Shown: positions 10,091-54,798 of the stretch, piece by piece
Numbering within the stretch: the first letter of the stretch is position 1
Layout of the letters: the number at the start of each line of letters is the position of its first letter
NCBI GenBank assembly: GCA_021846045.1
Contig: JAJZCM010000001.1
Coordinates: forward strand, 54,457 to 118,456
Reading direction: 5' to 3'
Source of the DNA: a bacterium
GTDB taxonomy: Bacteria > Elusimicrobiota > Elusimicrobia > UBA1565 > UBA9628
Length of the DNA stretch: 64,000 nt
Notes under the pieces: generated by a model
Seen by the model: the letters and a program-made list of their open reading frames with translations, nothing else
Told to the model about the DNA's origin: nothing
Databases searched by the model: none
Translations under genes and position numbers: made by a program

Positions 10091-10117
10091 TGAAAAGCGG
10101 TTCGTTTTAGGCTTTAG

Positions 10118-21725: not shown

Positions 21726-24734
<3,009 letters not shown>

Positions 24735-31710: not shown

Positions 31711-31772
31711 GCTCCGGAATCCAGAAGATCGCTGCTCTGGACCCCGACTTTCATCGGGGTGACGTGAGTTGT
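31711..31772 (-). repeat. degenerate/partial copy of the double-hairpin repeat family
   Basis: CCCCGACTTTCATCGGGGTGACGTGAGTTGT (reverse orientation, stem with a C-to-T change) plus a CCGGAATCCAG remnant. Confidence 0.6.
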
Positions 31773-31773
31773 T

Positions 31774-32712
31774 ATGGAAAAAATTGACATGGAACAAGTC
31801 TCTTCTGTAACTTTGGAGGAATTGCCCTGCAATTTGTGCGGTTCCAGAGAGAGCGCCGTTTTATACCAGCGGCCTTATCTGACTCCGCATGACCAGAAAG
31901 TCGGAGCTTTTGCCGCGACGACCGATGAATTTCTCAATTACGGACGCATTGTTTCTTGCTTAAAATGCGGTTTGTGTTATACCAATCCCCGTCCCACGGC
32001 CGAGGCCATTCTTTCCGGCTATGGAAATTACGTGGATGAAAGCTATCTTTTGGAAAGCTCAAGCCGTTCAATTAACGCCCATTTGAGCCTTAATACCATT
32101 CGGCGGTTCACTTCAACGGGCAAGCTCCTTGAAGTCGGTTCTTCCGTCGGTTATTTTCTCAACGCGGCCCGAACCGATTTTGAAGTGACGGGCCTGGAGC
32201 CTTCCCGTTGGGCCGCCGAAGAGGCGCGGAGAAGATTTAAAGTCGAATGTTATCCCGAATCGCTCGAAAACCCAAGCAGCATCCAGGGAAGAAGTTTTGA
32301 TGTGGTCGCCATGTCGGATGTCGTTGAGCATCTTCTGGATCCGAAATCGGCGGTTCTCTCTTGTCGAAATTTTTTAAAACCTGGGGGGATTCTCTACCTT
32401 CTGACGCCCGATATCGGAAGCCTTTCGGCCAAGTTGATGCGCGGCTATTGGTGGGGGCTTCGTCCCGCCCATATTTATTATTTTTCAAGACAAACGATGA
32501 CGCAAATGCTCATGGGAAACGGGTTTGAAATATTGACCATTAAATCCTTCGGGCGAATTTTCTCCTATTCCTATTGGCTGAGCCGGTTGAAGAACTACCC
32601 AAAATCAGTTTTCCTTACGGTTGGCGGGGTAATCAAAGCCCTTGGCCTTGAAAATAAGCTGGTCTATATTGATACACGGGATTCAATGGAAATATGCGCG
32701 AGAAAAAGGTAA
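31774..32712 (+). CDS. class I SAM-dependent methyltransferase with N-terminal C4 zinc ribbon
   Basis: CNLCGS...CLKCGLC, then LEVGSSVGYF (motif I) and VVAMSDVVEHLLDP. Confidence 0.75.
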   Translation: MEKIDMEQVSSVTLEELPCNLCGSRESAVLYQRPYLTPHDQKVGAFAATTDEFLNYGRIVSCLKCGLCYTNPRPTAEAILSGYGNYVDESYLLESSSRSINAHLSLNTIRRFTSTGKLLEVGSSVGYFLNAARTDFEVTGLEPSRWAAEEARRRFKVECYPESLENPSSIQGRSFDVVAMSDVVEHLLDPKSAVLSCRNFLKPGGILYLLTPDIGSLSAKLMRGYWWGLRPAHIYYFSRQTMTQMLMGNGFEILTIKSFGRIFSYSYWLSRLKNYPKSVFLTVGGVIKALGLENKLVYIDTRDSMEICARKR

Positions 32713-34031
32713 ATCAGGCGTCTTTAAAAATTGCCTGCGTTCCTTGCTCGCAAAGCGAGAGTGTGCGCGGGCGTCTAGGGGGAAGATTTTGGGCACGCGC
32801 ATGCATTCTCTTTTTCGCATTCATCCTGAGAAGCGCCTACGCTTTTTACGCTTACAATCATACGTTTAAGGAATATAAGACCGAAGGCCAGCAGGTATCG
32901 GCGCTTGATCCGGATGGATACAATCGCCTGGGCGTCGCCTTAATTGAGCGCGGGGAACTTTCCCTGACGCCGGGCCGTCTTGAAACTTCCCGCGAGCCTT
33001 TTTATCCCCTTTTGTTGGCGGCGGTCCATTTCTTTTTCGGGCTTTCACCCATCGTGGGGATTACGCTGAATGTCTTGATCGGAGTTTTGTGTTGTTGGAT
33101 GACGTATGCGGTCACTCTCTCTGTTTTTCAAAATGAACGGGTGGGGCTTTTTTCTCTCTTGCTGGCGGCTTTTTTTCCGGAATGGATTTATTTTTCCGCG
33201 ACGATGTTTCGAGAGCCGTTGATCATCCTTTTAAGCTTGATTTGGATTCTCCTGTGGCAGAAATACTCTTCCTCGAGGAATGGGTGGGCTTATGCCGGGA
33301 TGGGAACGGCCTTTGGGCTTCTCTGTTTAACCCGTTCTCCTTTCATCCCCATAGGGGGCGCTTTTGCGCTCTTGGCCGCCTCAAAAATAAAACTTAAAGA
33401 TTGGGCTCGGACCATTGGAATTTTCCTTTTGTGCGCTTTTGTTCTGGAAGGAATATGGACGTACCGCAACGAGAGAATCTTAAAGAGATGGGTCGCGGGG
33501 GCGAGCATGGGGGGCTCGGTCATGTATTTATCCCTTCTCTATAATTACTCGCGTCCGGACATTCCCCTTGAATACCCGCTGGGTGCGGGAAAAGACCCCG
33601 TTATTTCTGTGGTCCTTGCCCGGCATTTGACCTTGGATCAAGCCGAGCCTATTTTTTATCAGTCCTGTCTTAAAATTCTCATCCATCACCCGCTGGTTTT
33701 TTGGGACGCTTTCATCCATAAGGTTATGAAACTCTGGCGGCCTTACCCCAATCCTGGATGGAAATATCCGCATTCACTTTTCGCTCTTTCATCTCTCTCT
33801 TTGATCGGGCTTTTCTCGGGTGGTGGAATCATGCTTCTAGGTCTTTGGGGAAGCGTTTTGGCGTGGAGAAATGGATATCCTATTGGATTTTTAATCCTGT
33901 TTCCGATGCTCATGTCGGTGGTTTACGGGCTTTTTTGGGCCGTGATGCGCTATCACACAACTTTAATGGTGGGGGTCATTCCTCAGGCGGCCTACGCCTT
34001 AGACGCGCTGCTCTCAAGAAAAGAATCATGA
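32694..34031 (+). CDS. GT-C membrane glycosyltransferase (ArnT/PMT / GT39-83-like)
   Basis: Polytopic protein with an N-terminal periplasmic loop GYNRLGVAL..REPFYPLLLA, typical of polyprenyl-phosphate-sugar-dependent GT-C enzymes. Start uncertain. Confidence 0.65.
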   Translation: MREKKVNQASLKIACVPCSQSESVRGRLGGRFWARACILFFAFILRSAYAFYAYNHTFKEYKTEGQQVSALDPDGYNRLGVALIERGELSLTPGRLETSREPFYPLLLAAVHFFFGLSPIVGITLNVLIGVLCCWMTYAVTLSVFQNERVGLFSLLLAAFFPEWIYFSATMFREPLIILLSLIWILLWQKYSSSRNGWAYAGMGTAFGLLCLTRSPFIPIGGAFALLAASKIKLKDWARTIGIFLLCAFVLEGIWTYRNERILKRWVAGASMGGSVMYLSLLYNYSRPDIPLEYPLGAGKDPVISVVLARHLTLDQAEPIFYQSCLKILIHHPLVFWDAFIHKVMKLWRPYPNPGWKYPHSLFALSSLSLIGLFSGGGIMLLGLWGSVLAWRNGYPIGFLILFPMLMSVVYGLFWAVMRYHTTLMVGVIPQAAYALDALLSRKES

Positions 34032-35720: not shown

Positions 35721-35939
35721 GTGGAAAAACCTCAGGAATTGCTTTTTGTTATAGAAGAATCGCCTGGAGGAGGCTATATCGCCTCGGCCCTTGGCCCAAG
35801 CATTGTTACTGAAGCCGATGATTGGGAGTCGCTTAAAAAACGGATATCCGATGCGGTTTTGTGCCATTTTGAAGATCCGGCATTTCGCCCTCGCATCATT
35901 CGGCTTCATGCGGTCAAGGATGAGTTTTTGGCTTTATGA
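35721..35939 (+). CDS. hicB: HicB-family antitoxin (UPF0150-like, short form)
   Basis: LLFVIEESPGGGYIASALGPSIVTEADDWESLKKRISDAVLCHFED matches the HicB N-terminal RNase-H-like fold pattern. 4-nt overlap with the downstream hicA. Confidence 0.55.
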   Translation: MEKPQELLFVIEESPGGGYIASALGPSIVTEADDWESLKKRISDAVLCHFEDPAFRPRIIRLHAVKDEFLAL

Positions 35940-36178
35940 GGCTTCCCCGCGATATTGGGGGAGAGGAACTGGCCCGCCTGCTTATTCGCTATGGTTACAT
36001 GGTGACCCGCCAAACTGGCAGCCATATTCGACTAACAACTCAGCGAGAGGGAGAGCATCATCTGACGATTCCAGCGCATACTGATCTTCGTTTAGGGACG
36101 CTTAATTCTATCCTCCAAGAAGTGTCTCGGCATATCAAGAAAGATAAGAACGACTTAATTCAAGAATTATGGCCGTGA
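35936..36178 (+). CDS. hicA: HicA-family mRNA interferase toxin
   Basis: GYMVTRQTGSHIRLT...HLTIPAH.DLRLGTLNSILQ fits the YcfA/HicA dsRBD-like motif set (GSH, P.H, GTL..IL). Confidence 0.65.
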   Translation: MRLPRDIGGEELARLLIRYGYMVTRQTGSHIRLTTQREGEHHLTIPAHTDLRLGTLNSILQEVSRHIKKDKNDLIQELWP

Positions 36179-36199: not shown

Positions 36200-37222
36200 A
36201 TGTCGGATTCTCCGTTTTTTTCAATTGTCTTACCCACCTACAATCGCGCCGTGATGTTGCCGACGGCACTTGAAACTCTCCGTCGCCAAACATTTACTGA
36301 TTTTGAAGTTTTAATTGTTGATGATGGATCCACCGATAATACTCCTGAAATTGTTAAGACTTGGACGCAGGACTCGCGCTTCAAATATAAATTCTTAGAT
36401 CATGTCGGCAATATGCCATGCCGGAATAAAGCCCTTGAAATGGCTTCGGGGATATGGATTACCAATATTGATTCCGATGATCTTTGGCTGCCCAATAGGC
36501 TTGAGAAATTTGCGGCATATATTCAGCGGCATCCACAGGTGGGATTTATTTTCTCGAATGGGTATCTTTACCGGTTTGGGCGTATTATTGGGGTGGATTT
36601 TGATCCGTTGAAATCGCTTCCCGAGGGGAAAATGGCGGGGCATTATGCCGTGGGAAGATCGGGATTGCCGTATCTGACCACAAATCTCGCGATTCCCAGG
36701 GCTCTTTATGACAAATATGGCCATTATCGCAAAGATATGGTGATTCTCGACAATGAACTCTATGCGCGGATGCTCGCCGATGGAGTTGAAGTGGGCATTA
36801 TCTATGAGCCTTTGGCTATTCGCAGAATACATGGAGGCCAGGTTACTCATCAGTGGCTTGGCTCCTATCCGGAATCAATTGAAGCCCTAAAAGCCGCAAA
36901 GCCTTCTGCCGAGGTTTTTGATCAGGAGAAACTCAATCTTGTCCTAGAATTTTCTGATTACCTATGGCGTAATTTAGAGGGGAAAAAAGCGCGCTGTTTT
37001 ATGCTGGAAGAATTGGGAGAGAAGGCCCCAAAAACACGGCTTTATTTTCTTACTTTTATCCCGGCTCCCCTGCTGTTTTTAGCTAAAAAATTACGGAGAC
37101 TGTATTTAATCCTCATCCATTCCCCGATTTTTGCGAGCCCTGAGACCAAAAAAATATACCAGTTTCTTAATCCCTTGTTGATCAGCGAGGGAATTCGCGA
37201 GAGAGATAGTTGGTCGAGTTGA
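36200..37222 (+). CDS. GT2 glycosyltransferase
   Basis: FSIVLPTYNRAVML, VLIVDDGSTD, NIDSDD (DXD). Confidence 0.8.
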   Translation: MSDSPFFSIVLPTYNRAVMLPTALETLRRQTFTDFEVLIVDDGSTDNTPEIVKTWTQDSRFKYKFLDHVGNMPCRNKALEMASGIWITNIDSDDLWLPNRLEKFAAYIQRHPQVGFIFSNGYLYRFGRIIGVDFDPLKSLPEGKMAGHYAVGRSGLPYLTTNLAIPRALYDKYGHYRKDMVILDNELYARMLADGVEVGIIYEPLAIRRIHGGQVTHQWLGSYPESIEALKAAKPSAEVFDQEKLNLVLEFSDYLWRNLEGKKARCFMLEELGEKAPKTRLYFLTFIPAPLLFLAKKLRRLYLILIHSPIFASPETKKIYQFLNPLLISEGIRERDSWSS

Positions 37223-38784: not shown

Positions 38785-38872
38785 AAGCGAATTATAGTAA
38801 AATGGAAATCCCTTTATGCTGCTACGAGAACGATTCCCAAGTCCGAGAGAACGCAAGAACAGGGCCGTTTTC

Positions 38873-39487
38873 ATGGACAGAGACGGTGTGATTATTAAAG
38901 AAGTAAATTACCTCTCGCGCCTTGAGGATATGAAAATTATCTCCGGAGTTGCGGATTCGATCGCGAAACTGAGAAAAGCGGGCTTTAAGATGATAGTTAT
39001 CAGCAATCAGTCGGCCGTCGCTCGCGGACGCCTGAGCCTTTTTAAACTTCATAAAATTACGCGCGTTTTACTCCAAATGATTCGGGAAAAAAATTCCAAG
39101 GCTTGCATTGACGCCGTTTACTATTGTCCGCATCATCCTGATTTCGGCAAACCCTGCTCTTGCCGGAAACCCGGGATTGGGCTTCTCCTTAAAGCGCAAA
39201 AAAAATTCAACATTGATTTGAAATCCTCCTATTTTGTCGGAGACTCAAGCGCCGATATCCTAACGGCTCGGCGGGCAGGATGCGTTCCTCTGCTGGTGAA
39301 AACGGGGAAAGGTGGAAAAGACGGACTCTACAAGGCAAAGCCGAAAAAAATATTTAAAAACCTTTCCGAGGCTTCCCGCTGGATTTTAACTGCTCAGGTT
39401 CGTCATTCCGGCGAAAGCCGGAATCCAGTTGGAAACCTGGACCCCGACTTTCGTCGGGGTGACGTGAGTAGTTGCGCTGGATTTTAA
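38873..39487 (+). CDS. gmhB: D-glycero-D-manno-heptose 1,7-bisphosphate phosphatase (HAD-IIIA)
   Basis: FMDRDGVI (DxD), ISNQS, YYCPHHPDFGKPCSCRKP (Zn-binding Cys cluster), FVGDSSAD. The last ~28 codons and the stop codon come from the repeat element (AQVRHSGESRNP...). Confidence 0.8.
   Translation: MDRDGVIIKEVNYLSRLEDMKIISGVADSIAKLRKAGFKMIVISNQSAVARGRLSLFKLHKITRVLLQMIREKNSKACIDAVYYCPHHPDFGKPCSCRKPGIGLLLKAQKKFNIDLKSSYFVGDSSADILTARRAGCVPLLVKTGKGGKDGLYKAKPKKIFKNLSEASRWILTAQVRHSGESRNPVGNLDPDFRRGDVSSCAGF
39392..39475 (-). repeat. double-hairpin dispersed repeat copy (reverse orientation)
   Basis: GTTCGTCATTCCGGCGAAAGCCGGAATCC...TGGACCCCGACTTTCGTCGGGGTGACGTGAGTAGTTGC. Confidence 0.85.
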
Positions 39488-39491
39488 AACA

Positions 39492-40190
39492 ATGAAAGTA
39501 TTGATTGTCGCCGGCGGATTTGGAACCAGGATGCGTCCCTTGTCCCAGGATATTCCAAAGCCGATGCTCAAAATTTTTGAAAAGCCGATTTTGGAGCATC
39601 TCATTATTTGGCTTCAATCTTCTGGCTTTAAAGAGATTACTCTTTGTTTGGGGCACAAGGCGGATGTCGTGTCCAATTATTTCGGAAAGGGAGAGACATG
39701 GGGGGTCAATCTTGAGTATTATATCGAAACAGAACCGCGTGGAACGGCCGGATGCGTGCGGGATACGTGCGGTAATTTAACAGAGGACGTTCTGGTTGTT
39801 TATGGTGATTTGTTTATTTCGATGAATTTGAAACCGTTTTTGGACTTTCATGCCGAAAACTCCGGTTCTGCCGCGAGCTTGATTCTCTTTAAGACCGATC
39901 ATCCTCGGGATTCCGACTTAGTGCGTCTTGAAAACAGCCAAATTAAAAATTTTTACCGCGACCCAGAGGCTGAAGATTCGAAACATTTGGCTTGCGCGGC
40001 CGTCTGGGCGTTGAGAAAGCCGATTCTGGACTTGATTCCAAAAGACCGGCCTTCGGATTTTGGACGGGATATTTTCCCTCAAGCGCTTAAGAGAGGGCTC
40101 AGTTTGTCCGGATACGTCACGGCTGAAATCCTGGCGGATTTGGGAACCCCTGAGCGTTTTTCCGCTTTTGAAAAAAGGCGTTTGCAATGA
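39492..40190 (+). CDS. hddC: sugar-1-phosphate nucleotidyltransferase, D-glycero-alpha-D-manno-heptose 1-phosphate guanylyltransferase-like
   Basis: LIVAGGFGTRMRPLS..PKPM is an NTP_transferase signature. Its position between gmhB and hddA supports the HddC assignment. Confidence 0.65.
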   Translation: MKVLIVAGGFGTRMRPLSQDIPKPMLKIFEKPILEHLIIWLQSSGFKEITLCLGHKADVVSNYFGKGETWGVNLEYYIETEPRGTAGCVRDTCGNLTEDVLVVYGDLFISMNLKPFLDFHAENSGSAASLILFKTDHPRDSDLVRLENSQIKNFYRDPEAEDSKHLACAAVWALRKPILDLIPKDRPSDFGRDIFPQALKRGLSLSGYVTAEILADLGTPERFSAFEKRRLQ

Positions 40191-41158
40191 TCATTTCTCG
40201 CACGCCTTTTAGAATCAGCCTTGCCGGAGGCGGCACCGATCTTAAGGAGTTTTACCGGCATGAACACGGCGCCGTATTATCTTTTGCCATCGATAAGTAT
40301 ATGTATATCACCGTCAATCACTATTTTGATGAATCGGTGTTTTTAAAGTATTCAAAAAGCGAGTTGGTTGATTCCGCCTCTCGAATACGCCACCCTCTAT
40401 GGAGAGAGTGCTTGATTCAAAGCGGTCTCCATTGCGGAATAGAAATGACTTCGATGGCCGATATTCCGGGCGGCACGGGACTGGGTTCTTCCTCAAGCTT
40501 TACCGTTGGCACGCTCCATGCCTTATCGGCTTTTAAGGGCGAGTTTCGCACCGCTGAAGAGTTGGCCCGCGGCGCCTGTCGTATTGAAATTGAACGCCTG
40601 AAAGATCCCATCGGAAAGCAAGATCAATACATCGCCGCTTATGGCGGCTTTCAATTCATCGAGTTTCTGCCGGATGAAAGCGTGAAAGTTAATCCTGTCA
40701 TTCTTAGCGAGAAAACGCGCGAAGCCCTTTTTAGCCGGATGATTTTATTTTATACGGGAATGCGTCGCAGGGCGGGAACGATACTTAAAAAAGCTCGCAG
40801 CAATTTCTCGGAAAACATGGAGAGCCTCAGGCGCTTAAGAGAATTAGCCTATTGGTCCAAGGAAAGAATCCAAAAAGGAGACGTGGATTCAATCGGCCCG
40901 GTTTTGCGTGAAAGTTGGGAAATTAAAAAGTCCTTGACCGGGGAAGTGACTAACGAGGTGATTGATCAAATTTATAGAAGAGCTCTCAAGGCTGGAGCCG
41001 TGGGCGGGAAAATTCTCGGAGCGGGCGGTGGGGGGTTTCTACTTCTTTTTTGTCCTCCGTCTAAGCGTTCATCCGTTATCGGTAACCTTAAAAACTGGCG
41101 GCATATCCCATTTAAATTTGAACCGGAGGGGTCGAAAATAATCCATGTCAGCCGCTAA
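40187..41158 (+). CDS. hddA: D-glycero-alpha-D-manno-heptose 7-phosphate kinase (GHMP kinase)
   Basis: RTPFRISLAGGGTDL and the GHMP motif PGGTGLGSSSSF. ATGA overlap with hddC. Confidence 0.8.
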   Translation: MIISRTPFRISLAGGGTDLKEFYRHEHGAVLSFAIDKYMYITVNHYFDESVFLKYSKSELVDSASRIRHPLWRECLIQSGLHCGIEMTSMADIPGGTGLGSSSSFTVGTLHALSAFKGEFRTAEELARGACRIEIERLKDPIGKQDQYIAAYGGFQFIEFLPDESVKVNPVILSEKTREALFSRMILFYTGMRRRAGTILKKARSNFSENMESLRRLRELAYWSKERIQKGDVDSIGPVLRESWEIKKSLTGEVTNEVIDQIYRRALKAGAVGGKILGAGGGGFLLLFCPPSKRSSVIGNLKNWRHIPFKFEPEGSKIIHVSR

Positions 41159-41771
41159 AAAGATAACTTCCACCCGTCCGGGGGCTTTCCATCTCATTGG
41201 CCCGGGCGGCTTGCCGGCCGAGGATTTTGCCGCTTGGTATCGGACGGAGTCTTTTCGGCAGTGGCAAAGCCTCGATTTAAAGGCAATTTCCAGTCTTGCG
41301 AAAACAATCGAGAAGGCGGAAAAAGAAAATCGGGAAATTTTCGTCATGGGAAACGGGGGATCGGCCGCGACGGCTTCTCATTGGGCGACGGATTTTTCCA
41401 AGACGGCGTATGTTGCGGGACATCCAATGATTCGCTGTCGTTGCCTGTCTGAAAACATCCCTTATTTGACGGCGATCGGCAACGACCTATCTTTCGACGA
41501 CTTTTTTAGCCGTCAGTTGGAAAACATTTTAAACCCCGGGGACCTGGTTATTTTAATATCGGGAAGCGGAAATTCAAAGAACCTCATCAAGGCTTGCCGA
41601 TTGGCGAAGAAGAGAAAAGCCCAGACCGCTGGAATCCTGGGCTTTGATGGCGGGCGTTTAAAAAACATGGTTGATTTAAAGATTATCGTGCCTTCCAATC
41701 AATACGGCGTCATTGAGGATATGCACATGGCCATTGGGCACATTTTGACGTTTTATTTAAAACAGAGATAA
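41145..41771 (+). CDS. gmhA: phosphoheptose (sedoheptulose-7-phosphate) isomerase, SIS domain
   Basis: VMGNGGSAATASHWATDF, ILISGSGNS and a C-terminal HMAIGHIL. Confidence 0.8.
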   Translation: MSAAKKITSTRPGAFHLIGPGGLPAEDFAAWYRTESFRQWQSLDLKAISSLAKTIEKAEKENREIFVMGNGGSAATASHWATDFSKTAYVAGHPMIRCRCLSENIPYLTAIGNDLSFDDFFSRQLENILNPGDLVILISGSGNSKNLIKACRLAKKRKAQTAGILGFDGGRLKNMVDLKIIVPSNQYGVIEDMHMAIGHILTFYLKQR

Positions 41772-41776
41772 ACGAC

Positions 41777-42745
41777 ATGCGCGTTTTAATGACGGGAGGA
41801 GCAGGCCTTGTGGGAAATGCCTTAACGAGGCTTCTTCTTAAAAACGGCGCACGGGTCTTTTGCGTGGACAATCTTTCTCTGGGGACTCGCCGTCATCTCG
41901 CGGAGTTTCAAAATAATTCTGATTTTGAGTTTGAGGAGTTGGACGTCAGCGTTTCCAGCTGGCACAAAAAGATTCAAGGCCGAAACTTTGATTTGTTGGC
42001 GCATCTGGCTGCAAATTCCGACATTTCCTTGGGAAATTCCCGTCCCGAAATGGATAAGAGCCGCACCTGGGACACGACTTTTGAGGCCTTGATGGCCGCC
42101 CGTGAAATGAAGATTCCAAAATTTATTTTCAGTTCTAGTTCTGCGGTCTACGGGGCAAACCCCGTCATGCCGACGCCGGAGGCTTCTCCAAATCTTCATC
42201 CTGTTTCCATTTACGGCGCCGGAAAGCTGGCTTCCGAGGCTTTCATCAGCGCTTTTGTTGAAAATTACGGGCTCAACGCCTGGATTTTTAGGTTTGGCAA
42301 CGTTGTTGGCGAAAAACTAACCCATGGCGTCATTTATGATTTCATCGCGCGCTTGCGAAAAAACTCAAATGAGCTCAATGTCTTGGGAAACGGGTTTCAA
42401 ACAAAAACCTACATTGATGTGGAAGATTGCGTTTCCGGCATTTATCTGTCTCTTGAGAAAAGCCCGGACGGTTCACGCCACCAAGAAAAATTTCAGATTT
42501 TTAATTTGAGTACTGAAGGGGCCACATCGGTCAGGCAAATTGCCGAAGAGTCTTGCCGGGCTTTAAATCTTAAAACCTGCAAGGTCAACTATCAGAATTC
42601 TCCCATCGGATGGGTGGGGGATGTTCCTAAAACCAGCCTTGACGTGTCCAAGATTAAGCGCTGCGGTTGGCGGCCCCGGCTTGATTCAAACGCCGCAGTG
42701 CTTAAAGCGATTCAAGATTACGCCGCGTGGTCTAAGGGCTCCTAA
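41777..42745 (+). CDS. NAD-dependent epimerase/dehydratase (extended SDR)
   Basis: VLMTGGAGLVGNAL, with the YGAGK (YxxxK) motif. Confidence 0.8.
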   Translation: MRVLMTGGAGLVGNALTRLLLKNGARVFCVDNLSLGTRRHLAEFQNNSDFEFEELDVSVSSWHKKIQGRNFDLLAHLAANSDISLGNSRPEMDKSRTWDTTFEALMAAREMKIPKFIFSSSSAVYGANPVMPTPEASPNLHPVSIYGAGKLASEAFISAFVENYGLNAWIFRFGNVVGEKLTHGVIYDFIARLRKNSNELNVLGNGFQTKTYIDVEDCVSGIYLSLEKSPDGSRHQEKFQIFNLSTEGATSVRQIAEESCRALNLKTCKVNYQNSPIGWVGDVPKTSLDVSKIKRCGWRPRLDSNAAVLKAIQDYAAWSKGS

Positions 42746-42748
42746 ATC

Positions 42749-43438
42749 ATGATCTCAGGGAAAAAAATTAGTTTGATTTTGCCGACCCTTAATGAGGCGG
42801 AGGGGCTGGGTTATTTAAAGGAGAAAATTCCCTCTTCGATTGACGAGGTTTTGATTGTTGACGGCGACAGCCGCGACAAGACCAGGGAAATTGCTGAGAG
42901 TTTCGGCTGGAAAGTCGTCGTTGAAAAACGCCACGGCTACGGACGCGCGTATAAGACGGGGTTTGAGCAGTCTCAAGGCGATATTATCGCGACTGCCGAC
43001 GCCGATGGGACCTATCCCGTTGAGGATATCGAGTTCTTAGTTCAAGAGCTTTTAACCGCCGATCTTGATTTTATTTCCTGCTCCCGTTTTCCTTTAAAGG
43101 ATTCTCAAAGCATGAACGGGCTCAATCAGGTTGGGAATTTGATGATTACTTGGGCGGCTCAGGTCTTATGGCTTCACCCTTTCAGCGATATCTTGTCCGG
43201 CATGTGGGTTTTCAGACGAAGCGTTCTTAGTCAATTGGTCTTGAAAAGCGACAACTGGAATTTTTCCGAAGAAATAAAATTGCGCGCTTATGAAGCCCTG
43301 AAAGACAAATTTAAGGAAATTCAAATTTCTTACCGCAATCGCTTGGGGGAGACCAAACTCATGCCCTGGAAGGTGGGCTGGGAAAACATTCTCTATATGA
43401 TCGGCATGAGACTAAGGGCTCGCAACGAAATAATATGA
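42749..43438 (+). CDS. GT2 glycosyltransferase, DPM1/ArnC-like
   Basis: ISLILPTLNEAEGL, VLIVDGDSRD, ATADADGTYP. Confidence 0.8.
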   Translation: MISGKKISLILPTLNEAEGLGYLKEKIPSSIDEVLIVDGDSRDKTREIAESFGWKVVVEKRHGYGRAYKTGFEQSQGDIIATADADGTYPVEDIEFLVQELLTADLDFISCSRFPLKDSQSMNGLNQVGNLMITWAAQVLWLHPFSDILSGMWVFRRSVLSQLVLKSDNWNFSEEIKLRAYEALKDKFKEIQISYRNRLGETKLMPWKVGWENILYMIGMRLRARNEII

Positions 43439-43461
43439 CCATTTGGGAAGCCCAGATGGAG

Positions 43462-43499
43462 TTGTCCACCTCGTCCACAGTTATCCACAGTAATTCACA
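43462..43499 (+). promoter_or_regulatory. array of four head-to-tail DnaA-box-like 9-mers at exact 10-bp phasing, one perfect TTATCCACA
   Basis: GTTGTCCACC TCGTCCACAG TTATCCACAG TAATTCACAG. It lies in a ~230-bp apparently noncoding gap between two GT2 genes. Confidence 0.45.
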
Positions 43500-43535
43500 G
43501 AAAGAAAAAGAAGTAAAAAGGAGGAATGGCCTACA

Positions 43536-44402
43536 ATGGCTTTCTTCTTCTCTTCAAACGACAACAGCAAAGACCAGCTCAAATCAGGTCAACCGTGGCC
43601 CGAAGAACTGGGAGTGCCTCATTGGGAATATCCTTACTTTTTATCTCAGGCAAAGGTCAAAGGAATCATCTTGAAGTTTTCAATCGTCATCCCCATTTAT
43701 AACGAAGCCGCCACGGCCAAAACTCTTATTGAAAAAGTCATTACCGCCGAGGTCCTCGGGCTCGAAAAAGAAATCATCATCGTAGAAGGCGCGTCCACGG
43801 ACGGAACGCGAGAAATCGCGCGTGAGTTTGAAAAAACGCCCGGCGTTCGCGTTATGTATGAAGAGCGTCCTTCCGGTAAAGGCAATGCCGTCAAAAAAGG
43901 GCTTTCCGCCGTTACCGGAGATTATATTCTAATTCAAGACGGAGATTTGGAATACGATGTCGCCGATTACCCGAAACTTCTTAAGCCTCTAATTGAAAAT
44001 CAAGCCGACGTTGTTTATGGATCTCGCGTTTTGCGCTCGCCGCAAAGCTGGCAGTTCAGGCGTTTTTCCGGTTTTGAGAGATTTTACGGTTTTTTCGTCA
44101 ATTTCGGCGGCGTTCTCTTTACCAATCTTTTTAATTTTCTCTATGGAACGCATTTAAGCGATGTAGCGACTATGTTTAAGATTTTTAAGGCCGATGATTT
44201 GCGAAGGATAAGCCTTAAGAGTTGCGGCTTCGACTACGATTGGGAAATTTCCGCCAAACTGGCAAAGAATAAGTCCACTCGATTTAAAGAAATTCCTGTT
44301 TTTTATAGAGCGCGTTCCCGCGCAGAGGGGAAGAAAATCAGGTTTTGGAGAGATGGGCTTAGCGTGTTTATCGCGATTTTGCGCTACCGATTTTCTGATT
44401 GA
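43536..44402 (+). CDS. GT2 glycosyltransferase, DPM1/ArnC-like
   Basis: FSIVIPIYNEAATA, IIIVEGASTDGT, ILIQDGDLEYD. The ATG at 43536 adds an atypical 47-aa N-terminus; the real start is probably the TTG near 43672, preceded by AAAGGA. Confidence 0.75.
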   Translation: MAFFFSSNDNSKDQLKSGQPWPEELGVPHWEYPYFLSQAKVKGIILKFSIVIPIYNEAATAKTLIEKVITAEVLGLEKEIIIVEGASTDGTREIAREFEKTPGVRVMYEERPSGKGNAVKKGLSAVTGDYILIQDGDLEYDVADYPKLLKPLIENQADVVYGSRVLRSPQSWQFRRFSGFERFYGFFVNFGGVLFTNLFNFLYGTHLSDVATMFKIFKADDLRRISLKSCGFDYDWEISAKLAKNKSTRFKEIPVFYRARSRAEGKKIRFWRDGLSVFIAILRYRFSD

Positions 44403-45667
44403 AAATGGAGTGAGAGAAGATAAGAAAATCCAAGAATTAAAAACGGCATTATCGGCAAACGGTATCGCATTTGGCTGACACTCACCATGTGAACTCCGAA
44501 TGTCATAGCGATAAAAAGCACGATGGGGTAGAATATCCGCCGTTCCTTGTTAAAAAGCTGCCAAGTTCCCCACAACCCGCCTATAATTAGCCAAGGCTCG
44601 AAGAAAAAGCTGATCGTAATGAGCGTTCCCCGCCTTAAGCCAATTGATGGATGATTTGCGGGATTTTGGAAATAAACTTTGTTCATGCGCGGATAAAAAC
44701 GCCAAAAATTAAGGCTTTTTAGAAGCCATTGATGAATCACTGCCTCGGGATGGGTGAGCATAAAACGGATGGCCGCTCTCCAATAAAGATTATCTTGATC
44801 GTGCGCTGAAAGGCGGGAAGCTTGCGCAAAAAGGGGGGTGCCTTTCAAATAGTGCATGGCGACTTGCGTGTCTTGTTCGTTTAAATCAAAAAGGAGCGTG
44901 CCATGCAAGAGGCTAATTCCTCCATGGCTATCCAAGGAAAAAGAGCCCGTTTCGATGCGGTTTCTCAAAGACCATGAAATTAGAAGGAGAGCCCAGAAAA
45001 AAGAAGACCAAAGGAGGCTTAAAAGAATCGGGCGGCTCCTCAGAGACGCAAAAATTGCGATGAGCCATATTCCGACCATGATGACCGCGCCTTCCGGGCG
45101 CGAAAGAGCGGCCAGGCCCAACGAAATTCCCGTGGCGGCGGCGTTCAAAAAACTTGCTTTTCCCTCGGACATCATTTGACATAACCGCCAGATTCCAAAA
45201 GTCATAAAAACAAGATAAGGAGTTTCCGAGAGCATCATTCCCCCATAATAAATGAAAAAGGGATAAACGGTAGAAATAAGTAGCGCGATTTTTCCGGCAA
45301 GTTTGGAACGGGTCAGCTTTTCAGTCATTTGCCAAACGGTCCAGACTAAAGCCATGTCAGGAATGAGAAGGCCAAGCCGGGCATAAAGAGGACGGTCTCC
45401 AAAGAGGCGAAAGAAAATAGAGAAATAAAAGGCTGGGATGGGGGAACCTGCCGAAGCGTTGGTTTGGCTGCCAAAAACGTTAAATTTCATCAAATTGAGG
45501 GCCGCTTGATGATAACCCGTTTCATCAATTTGATAAAAGCCGTTTCCTAGTTTTAAGGCGAAAATAAAACGAATCAGGAATGCCGCTAGAAAACAGGCCC
45601 AAGGCGGGATTTTTTCAATAAATCCAAAAATCTTCTTTAATGACGATGTATAATTGGACGTAAGCAT
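44384..45667 (-). CDS. GT-C membrane glycosyltransferase (ArnT/PMT-like)
   Basis: Polytopic, with an N-terminal loop YQIDETGYHQAAL typical of GT39/83 enzymes. Confidence 0.65.
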   Translation of the reverse strand: MLTSNYTSSLKKIFGFIEKIPPWACFLAAFLIRFIFALKLGNGFYQIDETGYHQAALNLMKFNVFGSQTNASAGSPIPAFYFSIFFRLFGDRPLYARLGLLIPDMALVWTVWQMTEKLTRSKLAGKIALLISTVYPFFIYYGGMMLSETPYLVFMTFGIWRLCQMMSEGKASFLNAAATGISLGLAALSRPEGAVIMVGIWLIAIFASLRSRPILLSLLWSSFFWALLLISWSLRNRIETGSFSLDSHGGISLLHGTLLFDLNEQDTQVAMHYLKGTPLFAQASRLSAHDQDNLYWRAAIRFMLTHPEAVIHQWLLKSLNFWRFYPRMNKVYFQNPANHPSIGLRRGTLITISFFFEPWLIIGGLWGTWQLFNKERRIFYPIVLFIAMTFGVHMVSVSQMRYRLPIMPFLILGFSYLLSLHFQSENR

Positions 45668-45849: not shown

Positions 45850-47670
45850 ATGCCTGTCTTTAATCTTAAAGTATTTAATAAAAAGTCGGTAACTACTCAC
45901 GTCACCCCGACGAAAGTCGGGGTCCAGAGCAGCAATTTTCTGGATTCCGGCTTTCGCCGGAATGACGAACCTGGGCAGTTACAAAAGTCGTTTTGTATTG
46001 TAGTTGTTTTCCTTATTGCCTGGGGGTTGCGTGTTCTGGGCGTTCGATGGGGGCTTCCCAATATTTTTAACGGCGATGAGCCGCATTTTCTTAATCTCGC
46101 GGTTTCCTTTGGGCGCGGCTCTTTAAAGCCCTATGCTTTTAAATATCCGACTCTTTGGCCGTATTTTTTGTTTGTGTGTTATGGATTTTACTTTCTCTTT
46201 TGGTCTGGACTCGGGCTCTTGCATGGGATTACGGCTTTTGCCGGACTTTACGCTTGGCATCCGACGGGATTTTATCTCATCGCCCGCTTGGCGGCCGGTC
46301 TTCTTTCCATGGCCGCCGTTTTTGTCCTTTATCAAACGGGGAAAGAAGTAGAGGAGTTTTCCTGGGCATGGGTTTTTGCCGCTTTCGCTCCGCTTCTTAT
46401 TTATTCGGCTCACGAGGCGAAAGCCGACAGCCTGATGTTTTTCTTAATTTGTCTAGGCTGGCATTCGGCGGTGAAATTCTTTAAATCAGGGATGAGGAAA
46501 GATCATTTTTTTTCCGCCTTCTTTTTCGGGCTTGCGTTTTCAAGCCAGTTTACCGCTCTTCCGGCTTTAAGCGCGCTACTGGCTTTGGACTTTATTTCTC
46601 CAAAAAATACGCCTATAATCTGGGCCTTGGAGTCCGTTGGGATTTTTTCTCTGGCGTTTGTCTTGGGTTCTCCCTACGCAGTTTTTGATTTTCATAATTT
46701 CTGGTTCTGGATCCATATGCACAATCCCGAGGCGATGAACTCTCTTCGCTTTTGGACGAGACTAAGCGTGGCCAAGCGCCTCGGGCTCAATTTGCTGGGC
46801 TTTGAAGGATTTAATTGGGGGGCGGGGATTTTGGCTCTTTGGGGGCTTATTTCGTTTTTCTATCTTGATTTTAAGATGGCTTTGTTTCTTTTGTTTCCGG
46901 TTGCGCTTTCTTTCCTTGTCTTGGTTAATAATCCCGATGGAGGAGTTCCAAGATACTTGACTTCTGTTTTCCCGGCGCTTGATTTTATGGCCTCAGCGGG
47001 AATATTTTTCTTGTTAAAGGGAAAAAATCGGGCTTGGAAAACGATCATGGGCGGGCTAATCGCATCTTTTATTTTTTTCCCAGCTATTCTCAATGCTTGG
47101 AAGCGGGATAGGTTCATGAGACTTCCGGATACTCGAATGGAGGCGGAAAATTGGATATCAAAAAACATTCCCCAGGGGTCGGTTATTTTGGCTGATGAGC
47201 CCGATACCGAACCGAGGCTTTTAATGAATAAAGAAGAAGTGACGGCTTTGGCCGAGCGTACGAAACAGAATGGATCGCCCCGAAGTCGTCTTTATTTTGC
47301 CATGGCCCAAACTCATCCTGGGGGGGGGTATTGGGTTTACCGCATCAAGCGCTCTTCTTGGGATTTAGACATTTTCTTTACGGGGGAGGCGGATCTCTCG
47401 CAGAAAGATTCTCCCATGCTGAATATTTCCAAAGGGGTTGAGAGCGCCCGAGAGGCGGGAGTTCAATACGTCATCACTTCAAGTCAAGGCGTCAATCTAA
47501 AAAGAGCCATTGAGTTGCGAAATTTTTTTGATCAGCTGGGGTCAAAGGCTATTTTGCTTAAAGAATTTGATCCGGTCGCCGGGAAAACCGCCGGCCCGGT
47601 TCTCAAGGTATACCGGTTACCTGAGGCCCCAAATGGGGTGCCATTGCGGAATGAGCCGCGCCTCTTTTAA
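45850..47670 (+). CDS. GT-C membrane glycosyltransferase (ArnT/PMT-like)
   Basis: WGLPNIFNGDEPHF N-terminal loop and more than 10 TM helices. The ATG at 45850 reads through the repeat element in frame ([13 protein letters not shown]...); the true start may lie downstream of the element. Confidence 0.65.
   Translation: MPVFNLKVFNKKSVTTHVTPTKVGVQSSNFLDSGFRRNDEPGQLQKSFCIVVVFLIAWGLRVLGVRWGLPNIFNGDEPHFLNLAVSFGRGSLKPYAFKYPTLWPYFLFVCYGFYFLFWSGLGLLHGITAFAGLYAWHPTGFYLIARLAAGLLSMAAVFVLYQTGKEVEEFSWAWVFAAFAPLLIYSAHEAKADSLMFFLICLGWHSAVKFFKSGMRKDHFFSAFFFGLAFSSQFTALPALSALLALDFISPKNTPIIWALESVGIFSLAFVLGSPYAVFDFHNFWFWIHMHNPEAMNSLRFWTRLSVAKRLGLNLLGFEGFNWGAGILALWGLISFFYLDFKMALFLLFPVALSFLVLVNNPDGGVPRYLTSVFPALDFMASAGIFFLLKGKNRAWKTIMGGLIASFIFFPAILNAWKRDRFMRLPDTRMEAENWISKNIPQGSVILADEPDTEPRLLMNKEEVTALAERTKQNGSPRSRLYFAMAQTHPGGGYWVYRIKRSSWDLDIFFTGEADLSQKDSPMLNISKGVESAREAGVQYVITSSQGVNLKRAIELRNFFDQLGSKAILLKEFDPVAGKTAGPVLKVYRLPEAPNGVPLRNEPRLF
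45889..45982 (+). repeat. double-hairpin dispersed repeat copy
   Basis: GTAACTACTCACGTCACCCCGACGAAAGTCGGGGTCCAGAGCAGCAATTTTCTGGATTCCGGCTTTCGCCGGAATGACGAACCTGGGCAGTTAC. Confidence 0.85.
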
Positions 47671-49597: not shown

Positions 49598-50913
49598 AGG
49601 GCCAGTTTTTCCGCGCATTTCTTTCCATCCATGATCGCTTCTTCCATGAAAGAATATTTCCAGGCGCCGTAACGCCCGATTGACTCCACTTCGTTTTTTG
49701 CGAGGAATGGAAATAGTGTGTTCAAGGCTTTTGTTCTCTTAAAATCATAAACGACATATCCGCATTTGATCGGCAACCACTCTTTGATGATTACCCGATT
49801 GTCAGACCTTAATATTTTACAATCCCTGAGAGCCTTTAGCGCGAGAGATTCCATATGGGATAAGCGAACCTTAGTTTTTGAGTCTCTTGAAAATTCAACA
49901 TACAGAGAACTTGAACCCGCAGGCGCGTTGGAGGAAGCGAATTGATTGTAAAACCCAACCCGGTAGAAGGGATATTTTTTTTCAGGAAAATAAATCCAGT
50001 GTTTTCCCGGCATGAGGTTTCCGGAAACGCCGAGGTTGAGGCAATAAACGGAATTAGAGGACAAATTTTCGGCCGCGCTTAGAACGCGGGCGGGAGTTTC
50101 CTTGCAAAGAGAAATAAAATCAGTCAATGGAACGGTGTTAACCAAGCGTTTAAAAGAAACTATTCCCAGGTTTTTAACGAGCGCCTCTTTTGTCTTTAAA
50201 TTAATCCAGATGGCTTCACTGCTCAAAAGCAACTGGTTTTTCTTGAGGCGTTGGGATAAGGCGTTCGGCAGAGATTGAATGCCGCCTTGTCTAGGGTAGA
50301 CAAACGAGGCGTTGTATCCAAAAGCCTTCGTTTGGTCCATCAGAGCTCCATAGAGGACTTCGGAAACCTTGGGCGCGGGCACAAAACGGCCTTGCCATTC
50401 CGTCGTCATGGTCGAAAGTTTTCTTTGCCAAAGTTTTTCATTGTAGGGAAACAGGAAATGTTTGCAGATTCCATCTCCAAAAGTCCGAAGCGCCCAATCC
50501 TTGAAAGAGACCTGCGTGGTTTTTCTCGCAGTCTTAGTGGGGCGGTGGACGGTTTTAAGAAATCCAAGGAGACACTCGTCAATCACGGAATCCGGAAGGC
50601 CGTAGGTGTTGGCTTGGAAGGGGTAGCGCGTCAAAACCTCATGCGAATAAATCCAAGAACTGCGCTTAATCTCGCGCAAATTACCTTTTAGTAAGTCTTG
50701 GATCAGTTTTTTCCCATAGGGATCGTGAAGATGGAGAAGGTGCCCAGTAAAATCGAAGGTAAACCCTTTTCTAAATATCGAAGAGGCGGCGCCGCCGGGA
50801 TATTTTTCTTTTTCGACTATTAAGGCCGAAAGCCCTGAATTTTTATTAAGGTGATAGGCGGTCGATAGTCCGGCAAGGCCGCCGCCTAAAATTAAGACAT
50901 CGGTTTTAATCAT
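49591..50913 (-). CDS. FAD-dependent oxidoreductase (amine-oxidase fold; UDP-galactopyranose-mutase-like C-terminus)
   Basis: VLILGGGLAGLSTAY dinucleotide-binding motif. The C-terminal GRYGAWKYSFMEEAI resembles the Glf C-terminal GRLAEYKYYDMHQ. Confidence 0.6.
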   Translation of the reverse strand: MIKTDVLILGGGLAGLSTAYHLNKNSGLSALIVEKEKYPGGAASSIFRKGFTFDFTGHLLHLHDPYGKKLIQDLLKGNLREIKRSSWIYSHEVLTRYPFQANTYGLPDSVIDECLLGFLKTVHRPTKTARKTTQVSFKDWALRTFGDGICKHFLFPYNEKLWQRKLSTMTTEWQGRFVPAPKVSEVLYGALMDQTKAFGYNASFVYPRQGGIQSLPNALSQRLKKNQLLLSSEAIWINLKTKEALVKNLGIVSFKRLVNTVPLTDFISLCKETPARVLSAAENLSSNSVYCLNLGVSGNLMPGKHWIYFPEKKYPFYRVGFYNQFASSNAPAGSSSLYVEFSRDSKTKVRLSHMESLALKALRDCKILRSDNRVIIKEWLPIKCGYVVYDFKRTKALNTLFPFLAKNEVESIGRYGAWKYSFMEEAIMDGKKCAEKLALC

Positions 50914-51952
50914 CGTAAATTACGACGTGGGCAAGCATGCGGCTTAGGAGTAAAAGGGGAACAATTAATATTCCGTAGAGAATGATCGCGCCCATCAGAT
51001 GGATTTGCGTCGCTAGGAAACCGAAAAATCCAAGGAAAGCCGCTATTGCCGCCGCAATGAGAACGACTTGAAGACGGGAATACCCCATTTTTTCCAAGCG
51101 CAAGGCGAAGTGGTCTTTGGAGCCCATGAAAGGCGATTTTCCCTTCATCAGCCGAAGAACCATGACAAACAGCGTGTCATACATGGGGACGAGTAAAATT
51201 AAAATAGGCGCGTAGACTCCGGCCGGGTTGATGTCGGAATAGCGGGTTCCCAAAGAAACGCAGGCAAGCAAAAAGCCCAGAAGGAGGCTTCCGGAATCGC
51301 CCATAAAAATTTTTCTTTTTTTTGAAAAATTCCAGGGCAAAAAACCGAGGGCCGCGCCGGCGAGCGCGGCGGAGGCGAAGTTGACGTAGAGTTCTTCCGA
51401 CGGAAGGGAAATAAGAAGAAATCCCATCGCGGCTATCGCCGCCTGGCTTGCGCAGAGGCCGTCCATGATATCAATGATGTTGAGCGCATTAGTGATTCCG
51501 ACAATCCAAAGGAGCGTCAAAAACGCGGCGACGTAGTTGGGGGAAATAAAGCGAATGCGAATGCCGTTAAATAAAACAATCGAGGCGGCCGCGAACTCAA
51601 TTAAGAATTTAACGCGGTAATCGAGGCCTTTAGGCTTGTTGATGTCGTCAAAAATCCCGCAGGCGAAAATCATGCTTCCACCGATGAGAAGGGCTCTCAG
51701 GCTGTGCAGAGTTCCAGTGGGAAATCGCGTCCAAAAACGAAGAAAAATCAAGGTTAGCGAGTAGGCGATGTAAAGAGCGATTCCACCTACGACCGGAGTC
51801 GCGACTTTATGAGTTTTGATGGGAGAAGACGGGCGATCGACCCATCCCAAGGCCAAGGCGATTTTTCGAGCCAGCGGAGTTAAGGCGAAAGATAAAAAAA
51901 AGGATGAAAAGACCGCAATCGCGTAGAGGCGCCAGTTGTCAATTTTTATCAT
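50906..51952 (-). CDS. polyprenyl-phosphate N-acetylhexosamine-1-phosphate transferase (MraY/WecA family, GT4)
   Basis: Polytopic, with the NALNIIDIMDGL motif characteristic of MraY/WecA. Confidence 0.8.
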   Translation of the reverse strand: MIKIDNWRLYAIAVFSSFFLSFALTPLARKIALALGWVDRPSSPIKTHKVATPVVGGIALYIAYSLTLIFLRFWTRFPTGTLHSLRALLIGGSMIFACGIFDDINKPKGLDYRVKFLIEFAAASIVLFNGIRIRFISPNYVAAFLTLLWIVGITNALNIIDIMDGLCASQAAIAAMGFLLISLPSEELYVNFASAALAGAALGFLPWNFSKKRKIFMGDSGSLLLGFLLACVSLGTRYSDINPAGVYAPILILLVPMYDTLFVMVLRLMKGKSPFMGSKDHFALRLEKMGYSRLQVVLIAAAIAAFLGFFGFLATQIHLMGAIILYGILIVPLLLLSRMLAHVVIYDD

Positions 51953-54696: not shown

Positions 54697-54706
54697 GATT
54701 TTTGTT

Positions 54707-54798
54707 AACCACTCACGTCACCCCGACGAAAGTCGGGGTCCAGAGCAACAATTTTCTGGATTCCGGCTTTCGCCGGAATGACGAACCTGAGCAGTTAT
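54707..54798 (+). repeat. double-hairpin dispersed repeat copy in a divergent promoter region
   Basis: ACCACTCACGTCACCCCGACGAAAGTCGGGGTCCAGAGCAACAATTTTCTGGATTCCGGCTTTCGCCGGAATGACGAACCTGAGCAGTTATG. Confidence 0.85.

Follow-up and report, generated by a model that had tools for sequence, protein, structure and literature searches.

The closest described relatives of the genes considered here belong to two kinds of system. The first is the alpha-type GDP-heptose pathway, in which GmhA, HddA, GmhB and HddC act in that order in Campylobacter jejuni (PMC10680097). The second comprises the three-component systems for periplasmic glycosylation (GtrA/GtrB/Gtr*, ArnC/ArnEF/ArnT and those for pentofuranoses described by Kelly et al., 2024), in which a cytoplasmic polyprenyl-phosphate sugar synthase works in company with a membrane glycosyltransferase of the GT-C type and, as an option, an auxiliary epimerase broadens the range of sugars; the sugars described as delivered in this way include glucose, galactose and pentofuranoses (PMC11127046). 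This article is about a gene set in which these two kinds of system appear to meet. It lies in a stretch of 64,000 nucleotides from a member of the Elusimicrobiota (assembly GCA_021846045.1, contig JAJZCM010000001.1; hereafter “the window,” meaning the whole stretch), where a complete set of heptose-nucleotide genes is followed by glycosyltransferases resembling those that load sugars onto lipid phosphates.

Seven co-directional open reading frames (ORFs) on the plus strand span positions 38816–44402. The first five make up the heptose set: a GmhB-like HAD-IIIA phosphatase (38816–39487), a nucleotidyltransferase of the NTP_transferase family in the HddC position (39492–40190), an HddA-type GHMP kinase (40187–41158), a GmhA-like SIS isomerase (41145–41771) and a GalE-like extended short-chain dehydrogenase/reductase (SDR) of the epimerase/dehydratase family (41777–42745). 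Pfam and NCBIfam confirm all five frames and the enzyme families given to them in the initial annotation. That annotation closed the unit at 42745, but the co-directional string runs on into two family 2 glycosyltransferase (GT2) genes. One, at 42749–43438, encodes a 229-residue protein of the polyprenyl-phosphate glycosyltransferase type according to NCBIfam, and is the partner of the SDR; the other, at 43536–44402 with a conserved core from 43671, is of the DPMS/ArnC/GtrB type (DPMS, dolichyl-phosphate mannose synthase) and has no transmembrane (TM) helices. Convergent with the operon, on the minus strand, comes a GT-C membrane glycosyltransferase of the PMT_2 family (44384–45667), and beyond it, on the plus strand, a second GT-C-like membrane protein with a weak PMT_2 match (45850–47670).

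In the scheme proposed here, a nucleoside diphosphate (NDP)-heptose would be handed to polyprenyl phosphate and from there would serve GT-C enzymes acting outside the cytoplasm, a reading to which we give an even chance. The SIS protein would isomerise sedoheptulose-7-phosphate to the 7-phosphate of D-glycero-D-manno-heptose, the GHMP kinase would phosphorylate C1 to give the alpha-1,7-bisphosphate, the HAD-IIIA phosphatase would take off the 7-phosphate, and the action of the nucleotidyltransferase would lead to NDP-heptose. These four steps rest on homology and conserved clustering, and the three that follow on conserved neighbourhood and fold. At the inner membrane face, the DPMS-like GT2 (43536–44402) would move the heptose to polyprenyl phosphate. 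In this lineage the SDR would also epimerise part of the NDP-heptose pool, most likely at C4, and its partner GT2 (42749–43438) would load the epimer onto lipid. After flipping, the GT-C enzyme at 44384–45667, and perhaps that at 45850–47670, would transfer heptose from the lipid phosphate to an acceptor in the periplasm, conceivably a glycan, lipid A/core or a protein. Taken by themselves, the lipid loading, the epimer branch and the GT-C use seem to us about evenly poised between right and wrong.

Glycosyltransferases linked to the heptose genes

The linkage was followed in 80 genomic loci retrieved with an alignment of the kinase, onto which the window proteins were mapped; neighbourhoods were counted in the 27 Elusimicrobiota-type loci with at least 2.5 kb of downstream flank. 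A small DPMS-like GT2 lies 0.8–5.6 kb past the kinase in every one of them (27/27). At 24 of these loci it is an orthologue of the 43536–44402 protein (53–83% identity), while the remaining three, which are the closest relatives (L004, L006 and L007), carry an orthologue of the 42749–43438 GT2 preceded by the SDR, an enzyme with orthologues in only 3 of the 27. The window carries both GT2 genes, and another close relative, L005, with 2.3 kb downstream and so outside the 27, has the 43536-type GT2 only and no SDR. The search was also run in reverse, metagenomes being scanned with an alignment of the 43536-type GT2. Within a group at 56–69% identity, heptose genes were recovered wherever the flank allows, and in a second clade from soil (45–49% identity) they were present in about 9 of 17 well-flanked loci. 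On one soil metagenome contig (Ga0302325_10000308, positions 4351–10714) a nucleotidyltransferase, a GHMP kinase, a SIS protein, a HAD protein, a transaldolase and an SDR follow one another in that order, and after them comes a 545-residue protein that joins an N-terminal methyltransferase-like domain to a DPMS-like GT2. Transaldolase makes sedoheptulose-7-phosphate, so its presence inside this cluster gives independent support for heptose as the sugar.

What kind of enzyme is the invariable neighbour? The best NCBIfam family for the 43536–44402 GT2 is AglJ, an archaeal dolichyl-phosphate hexosyltransferase (124 bits, the next family scoring 49), and its PDB sequence matches begin with Pyrococcus furiosus DPMS (5mlz, E 2e-16), followed by ArnC. 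An AlphaFold (AF2) model built on 37 homologues (pLDDT 87.9, pTM 0.86) has a GT-A core and two long helices, 136–158 and 225–241, at the positions of the DPMS interface helices IFH1 and IFH2 (PMC5526996). When this model was compared with the PDB by Foldseek, the top 16 matches were all ArnC, DPMS or GtrB (TMq 0.62–0.74), the identity to DPMS being about 22–24%. Both the DxD motif (D-G-D) and the arginine of a “GSR” motif are invariant, the latter corresponding to Arg117 of DPMS, a residue in contact with the lipid phosphate and with mannose O6 (PMC5526996). Sequence and model together thus point to a member of the polyprenyl-phosphate glycosyltransferase type, and a lipid-linked product is predicted. 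DPMS-like chemistry would be natural here, since GDP-alpha-D-manno-heptose is the one-carbon homologue of GDP-alpha-D-mannose, the substrate of DPMS.

The GT-C protein at 44384–45667 is polytopic and matches PF13231 (PMT_2) with 38.8 bits, over the cut-off of 26.1, and a motif following its first TM segment (TM1), Q46-x-D48-E49-x-G51, is invariant in 14 orthologues. An acidic motif just past TM1, in the first extracytoplasmic loop, is typical of GT-C enzymes. A sequence search with this protein against the PDB gave no match. Its orthologues occur in 20 of the 27 loci. The second protein, at 45850–47670, has eight TM-like segments and reaches only 20 bits on PMT_2, under the same cut-off; its orthologues align from residue 35–65 or so onward.

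The arrangement recalls the DPM1/PMT scheme of eukaryotes, the Ppm1/Pmt scheme of actinobacteria and the AglJ-type scheme of archaea, with which it shares the DPMS fold, the DxD motif, the “GSR” arginine, the two long helices, and the pairing of a GT2 with a PMT_2-family GT-C bearing an acidic motif after TM1. Human DPM1 shares with the 43536–44402 protein the absence of a TM domain, and the catalytic domains of human DPM1 and actinobacterial Ppm1 are likewise TM-less. The differences from this scheme lie in the sugar-nucleotide genes, which are here those of heptose rather than mannose, in the low identity to DPMS already given, and in DPMS Asp39, which is not conserved. With the three-component systems the locus shares the pairing of a cytoplasmic polyprenyl-phosphate sugar synthase with a GT-C enzyme, and possibly the optional epimerase. 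It differs from them in that no flippase gene is recognised and that GtrB and ArnC have two C-terminal TM helices with no counterpart in this GT2, and heptose was not encountered among the sugars described for such systems. Coupling of a heptose pathway to a lipid-monophosphate carrier and a GT-C enzyme would be a variation on the three-component, DPM1/PMT-type scheme (PMC11127046).

A rival explanation follows the initial annotation in its analogy with S-layer glycans and capsules. Cytoplasmic glycosyltransferases would assemble, on undecaprenyl diphosphate, a repeat unit containing heptose (S-layer glycan, capsule or O-antigen-like); the neighbouring GT2 enzymes would then be glycan builders, and the GT-C proteins either unrelated neighbours or of the polymerase/ligase type. 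All characterised GDP-heptose pathways do serve such a purpose (PMC10680097), and the window encodes an initiating transferase resembling WecA, a Wzy_C protein similar to O-antigen ligases and a further GT2 at 36200–37222. Moreover, the GT2 family is very broad, and enzymes with soluble acceptors match the model too. Yet profile score, sequence and fold rank alike place the partner GT2 specifically in the DPMS/ArnC/GtrB/AglJ type, and it is the sole transferase linked to the heptose genes at all 27 loci, where the other glycosyltransferases of the window are not conserved. GT-C enzymes, for their part, take lipid-phosphate-linked donors (PMC11127046). The conserved neighbours do not point towards the S-layer and capsule analogy, being instead a DPMS/ArnC-like GT2 and GT-C enzymes, and we regard the repeat-unit explanation as unlikely, though deserving of serious attention.

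Several observations weigh against transfer by way of a polyprenyl phosphate. Neither the window nor the set of conserved neighbours includes a recognisable flippase candidate (GtrA, SMR, MATE or Wzx), and the GT-C orthologue is absent from the flank in 7 of the 27 loci. The 43536–44402 GT2 contains no TM-like segment, its model stopping once the second long helix is complete; where DPMS has Asp39 in contact with guanine, this protein has Gly85, next to Glu84; and glucosyl-3-phosphoglycerate synthases (GpgS-type GT2 enzymes with soluble acceptors) match the model at TMq of about 0.69. The window also holds several other GT2 and GT-C genes, so that shared residence in a general glycan island could account for some of the linkage. 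Finally, the functions of the core enzymes and of the GT2 proteins are predictions from family, fold and neighbourhood. A 118-residue ORF at 24738–25094, following another GT2, was considered as a flippase and rejected, with a single TM segment and no family match.

Extended beyond this genome, the proposal would be that Elusimicrobiota and at least one other lineage make a polyprenyl-phosphate-heptose donor from GDP-heptose by means of a DPM1-like, TM-less GT2, that an extracytoplasmic GT-C consumes this donor, and that a swappable SDR and GT2 cassette adds an epimeric one. This wider claim is tentative, and we place it just short of an even chance. The heptose pathway alone would be routine annotation in a new phylum; what is new is its coupling, lineage-wide, with a DPMS-like GT2 and a GT-C. 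A full-text literature search, with a coverage that leaves out most subscription-journal papers, turned up no account of heptose linked to polyprenyl, undecaprenyl or dolichyl phosphate. If the proposal is true, heptose joins the hexoses, Ara4N, GalN/GalNAc, GalA and the pentofuranoses as a sugar carried on a polyprenyl monophosphate, which would define a new donor substrate as well as two GT2 subfamilies whose specificity could be assigned. The proposal would also offer a testable handle on the envelope chemistry of the Elusimicrobiota, most of them known only as metagenome-assembled genomes (MAGs), and caution against taking every HddA/HddC cluster for capsule or S-layer repeat-unit synthesis.

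Other genes of the same general kind are present in the window. On the minus strand, 50906–54696 encodes a WecA-like GT4 (50906–51952), a 675-residue PMT-family GT-C (51953–53980) and a DPMS/AglJ/PpgS-like GT2 (53938–54696). An AglJ/ArnC-like GT2 at 23955–24734 on the plus strand adjoins two SDR genes (25156–27287, minus strand). The organism seems to lean heavily on lipid-phosphate sugar donors.

The probable route to an activated heptose

The kinase carries both the N-terminal and the C-terminal GHMP domains (PF00288, 50 bits; PF08544, 40 bits), and its PxGxGLGSSS-type motif, IPGGTGLGSSSS, as well as a “GAGGGGF” motif, is invariant in 13 orthologues. Its top four PDB matches are all heptose-7-phosphate kinases, with E values from 1e-46 to 1e-41 as against 1e-17 for fucokinase: Bacteroides thetaiotaomicron 3k85 (160 bits), Burkholderia pseudomallei WcbL 4usm and 4usk (148 and 144 bits) and C. 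jejuni 4n3o (144 bits), other GHMP structures such as fucokinase and galactokinase giving 65 and 61 bits. The best NCBIfam model is HddA (NF049969), at 177.3 bits far under its cut-off of 600. The alpha-anomeric 1,7-bisphosphate is the product predicted from these sequence relationships.

The nucleotidyltransferase belongs to PF00483 (106 bits), and its N-terminus, AGGFGTRMRPLS, fits the signature GGxGTRxxPLT/S. Among NCBIfam models it scores 146 bits on mannose-1-phosphate guanylyltransferase NF052502 and 88.9 bits on HddC NF049965 (cut-off 300); in the PDB it comes nearest the plant GMPP structures 8yre and 7x8j (89 bits), followed by Yersinia HddC 5xhw (81 bits).

The SIS protein matches PF13580, and its top 10 PDB matches are all phosphoheptose isomerases, including GmhA of B. 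pseudomallei, C. jejuni and E. coli. On TIGR00441 it scores 111.3 bits (cut-off 209). The catalytic glutamate of GmhA, which we take to be E65 in E. coli and E68 in B. pseudomallei (the catalytic histidine presumably being H180 and H183, respectively), is replaced by Asp83, whereas His79 and His199 are kept; B. pseudomallei Q175, a zinc/substrate glutamine, corresponds to Glu191. The Asp83 position is nearly invariant as Asp across the kinase-linked SIS subfamily, and the replacement therefore looks like a subfamily trait and not decay. The GmhA-like proteins linked with HddA-type kinases thus share both exchanges, Asp for the catalytic Glu and Glu for the zinc/substrate Gln, and those of the Elusimicrobiota also have a conserved N-terminal extension of about 45 residues.

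In the phosphatase, alignment to E. coli GmhB 3l8e finds HAD motifs I–IV and the zinc loop all present (FMDRDG as DxDG, SNQS, CPHHP...CSCRKP and GDSxxD), and the best PDB matches are this structure and 2gmw, also E. coli GmhB (E 2e-29). Its best-scoring model is NCBIfam PRK08942, a beta-type GmhB.

Together these proteins support the alpha (HddA/HddC-type) route proposed in the initial annotation: the four defining enzyme types are present, the kinase is nearest the heptose-7-phosphate kinases, and clustering with the HldE branch fails on fold alone, the nucleotidyltransferase being PF00483 and the kinase GHMP. PfkB, CTP_transf_like/cytidylyltransferase-like (HldE-type) and GT9 domains were found in no ORF of the 64-kb window. 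An HldE/HldD route for these genes is rejected on fold, none of these domains being present in the window, and the alpha-type route of C. jejuni is the template to follow. With the ADP-heptose (beta) route the locus has in common the steps of GmhA and GmhB, and a phosphatase scoring best on the beta-type model; it departs from it in having a GHMP kinase instead of PfkB, a PF00483 transferase instead of a cytidylyltransferase-like one, and an SDR that scores 70 bits on HldD and 112 on GalE. From the characterised alpha-type pathway, with which it shares clustered SIS, GHMP kinase, HAD-IIIA and PF00483 folds and whose enzymes are the kinase's nearest structures, it differs in scores far under the cut-offs, in a nucleotidyltransferase nearer to mannose-1-phosphate guanylyltransferases than to HddC, in the Asp in place of the catalytic Glu, and in downstream partners that are a DPMS-like GT2 and a GT-C rather than the transferases that build repeat units of capsules or S-layers. 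In its heptose-nucleotide part, the locus adds a new and divergent member to a pathway already known.

As for the nucleotide, we infer GDP. The nucleotidyltransferase is nearest mannose-1-phosphate guanylyltransferases and HddC, the partner GT2 is nearest the GDP-mannose-using DPMS, and to our knowledge the characterised GHMP-kinase heptose routes all end in GDP (PMC10680097); each of these suggests GDP indirectly. The SDR suggests it as well, being nearest to an epimerase that prefers GDP-sugars (PMC12171764).

The case is not one-sided, for the heptose set itself contributes points that tell against the proposed scheme. All four core proteins fall under the NCBIfam curated cut-offs, and the phosphatase scores higher on the beta-type than on the alpha-type GmhB model: 163.9 bits on PRK08942, under its cut-off of 178, as against 104 bits on the alpha-type NF050049, whose cut-off is 250. 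The exchange of the catalytic Glu for Asp83 in the SIS protein counts in the same way. The heptose could in principle be activated with a nucleotide other than GDP (UDP, CDP or ADP, for example), or a related sugar phosphate could be the substrate; the low scores and the altered catalytic residue would suit this, as would the loss of the guanine-binding Asp of DPMS from the GT2, and UTP- and dTTP-using enzymes match the nucleotidyltransferase only slightly less well than its best matches do. Those best matches are nevertheless guanylyltransferases, no other GHMP kinase comes anywhere near as close to this kinase as the heptose-7-phosphate kinases do, GmhA and GmhB are the nearest matches of the SIS and HAD proteins, and a homologous cluster includes a transaldolase. 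A different nucleotide or sugar thus appears improbable.

Less probable again, and in our opinion very doubtful, is a role in the inner core of the lipopolysaccharide (LPS), with the pathway replacing HldE/HldD in a diderm and the downstream genes being unrelated. HldE-like and HldD-like genes are indeed absent from the window, and conservation of the cassette across the Elusimicrobiota would suit a housekeeping role in the envelope. However, the window has no GT9 heptosyltransferase, the tight linkage to a DPMS-like GT2 would be left unexplained, and at least one organism with the SDR module described below has an HldE-like gene too (contig L166).

The five-gene set is not a matter of chance, since an identical gene set is annotated on the 194-kb Elusimicrobia MAG contig DAHZHZ010000002.1 (GCA_027401925.1), where the kinase protein is identical, and orthologous heptose gene sets are present in dozens of further genomes. 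The kinase also has homologues, about 50–55% identical, at many loci where no other window gene is detectable within 10 kb (L039, L042, L048–L050, L052–L057, L059–L061, L063–L065, L067, L068, L070, L073, L075, L077 and L079–L081). These belong mostly to Desulfomonilaceae and other delta-proteobacterial MAGs, with some from Verrucomicrobiota, Pseudomonadota and unclassified sources, and they indicate that an HddA-type kinase is not always clustered with its pathway.

The SDR and its partner GT2

The best PDB match of the SDR (41777–42745) is 8rdg, the GDP-sugar 4-epimerase PhGal4E_1 of Pyrococcus horikoshii (216.6 bits, 39% identity), a promiscuous epimerase that prefers GDP-sugars (PMC12171764). 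The protein keeps Y146 and K150, the catalytic Tyr/Lys pair, together with N175 and H183 (N174 and H182 of PhGal4E_1) and the GW.GDV loop. It differs from this nearest solved relative in the “red wall,” where Ser/Ser takes the place of P80 and R83 in a motif, “ANSDIS,” that hardly varies across the bacterial clade, and in its partners, which are GmhA-like, nucleotidyltransferase and GT2 genes. The R83A variant of PhGal4E_1 retains 56–77% of its activity on GDP-sugars and loses that on UDP-glucose (PMC12171764). From these sequence relationships, C4 is the most likely position of epimerisation.

Other assignments for the SDR were tried and set aside. A 4,6-dehydratase, an HldD or a Cj1427-type C4-dehydrogenase would each be at odds with its profile scores (GalE 112, dTDP-glucose dehydratase 107, HldD 70 bits). 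The protein has “SSSAVYG” and not the T-D/E-E motif of dehydratases, and it gives 216 bits to GalE-1/PhGal4E as against 48 bits to 6vo6, which we take to be Cj1427.

Four SDR orthologues (59–67% identical), on the unrelated contigs L164–L167, are each followed immediately downstream by a GT2 orthologous to the 42749-type protein (55–65%). Three of these four contigs are ordered GmhA-like SIS, SDR, a different nucleotidyltransferase, GT2; one of the three encodes a GHMP kinase as well, with a divergent GT22 GT-C next door, and another has a multi-TM protein with a DE motif after TM1. With this pairing of SDR and GT2 beside SIS genes, the pair evidently travels with heptose isomerase genes, which also hints at a lipid-loading enzyme dedicated to the modified heptose. 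The partner GT2 (42749–43438) scores 126 bits on AglJ, 98 on dolichyl-phosphate hexose transferase and 53 on PpgS in NCBIfam, a family profile like that of the 43536–44402 GT2. Modification of GDP-heptose by the SDR had been put forward in the initial annotation. The link to heptose is supported by context, orthologues being found between GmhA-like SIS and nucleotidyltransferase genes, while GDP is reached only by the indirect arguments given above; the SDR is best described as a probable NDP-heptose epimerase, judging from its sequence. The SIS-SDR-nucleotidyltransferase-GT2 modules of L165 and L166 have neither a GHMP kinase nor a HAD phosphatase within 7 kb, and on L166 the HldE-like gene lies 6 kb from the module.

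Gene boundaries, a repeat element and other features of the window

The gene for the phosphatase deserves a closer description. Its start had been set at 38873, a codon for the methionine within the HAD motif I, “AVFMDRDGV”; the correct start is 38816, because orthologues align from residues 4–17 of the resulting 223-residue ORF. This is 31 nt from a divergent B12-radical-SAM gene (start 38784, according to the MAG annotation). Residues 1–191 are native, and residues 192–223 (32 codons) are read from an inserted repeat element, so that orthologues match over residues 4–191 or thereabouts and the final 32 codons match none.

The element, a 92-nt hairpin resembling miniature inverted-repeat transposable elements (MITEs) and repetitive extragenic palindromic (REP) sequences, occupies 39384–39476 at the junction of the phosphatase and nucleotidyltransferase genes, between direct repeats, GCTGGATTTTAA, that form a 12-nt duplication. 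It is composed of two GC-rich hairpin halves and folds at -52.3 kcal/mol (z = -6.2). At least six copies occur in the 64 kb, in both orientations (7253–7344, 31714–31781, 39384–39476, 45890–45981, 54706–54797 and 57295–57386). The four closest relatives have no repeat element at this junction, where the ATGA stop/start overlap (TGA/ATG) is intact. The direct duplication and the absence from these relatives imply that the element behaves like a MITE, and, as read from the sequences, the junction is ancestrally an ATGA overlap, remodelled here by the insertion. The copy at 45890–45981 falls inside the annotated 5′ end of the GT-C-like ORF 45850–47670, whose true start is probably past it.

Overlaps of 4 nt throughout the operon had also been reported. 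One exists between the nucleotidyltransferase and kinase genes (ATGA, 40187–40190), but the three remaining junctions are different: the kinase and SIS genes overlap by 14 nt, and gaps of 4 nt and 5 nt separate HAD from nucleotidyltransferase and SIS from SDR. Scans for promoters and terminators gave counts no different from the shuffled expectation, and those for Rfam families and tRNAs gave no matches.

Elsewhere in the window, a 689-residue ORF on the minus strand (10118–12187), without a Pfam match, contains near-identical repeats of about 200–256 nt at a spacing of about 417–432 nt (10269–11117). Between 29879 and 35674, two PmbA/TldD-like paralogues (609 and 638 residues, with one TM-like segment each) surround a methyltransferase and a PMT_2 GT-C (32694–34031); the first of them has a perfect 63-nt tandem duplication (31552–31677), and homologues of these PmbA/TldD-like proteins turn up close to the heptose module at about 10 loci of the Elusimicrobiota. 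Amid the glycan genes, at 35721–36178, lies a small HicB-like/HicA toxin-antitoxin pair (72 and 80 residues), HicA being recognised by Pfam on the identical MAG contig.

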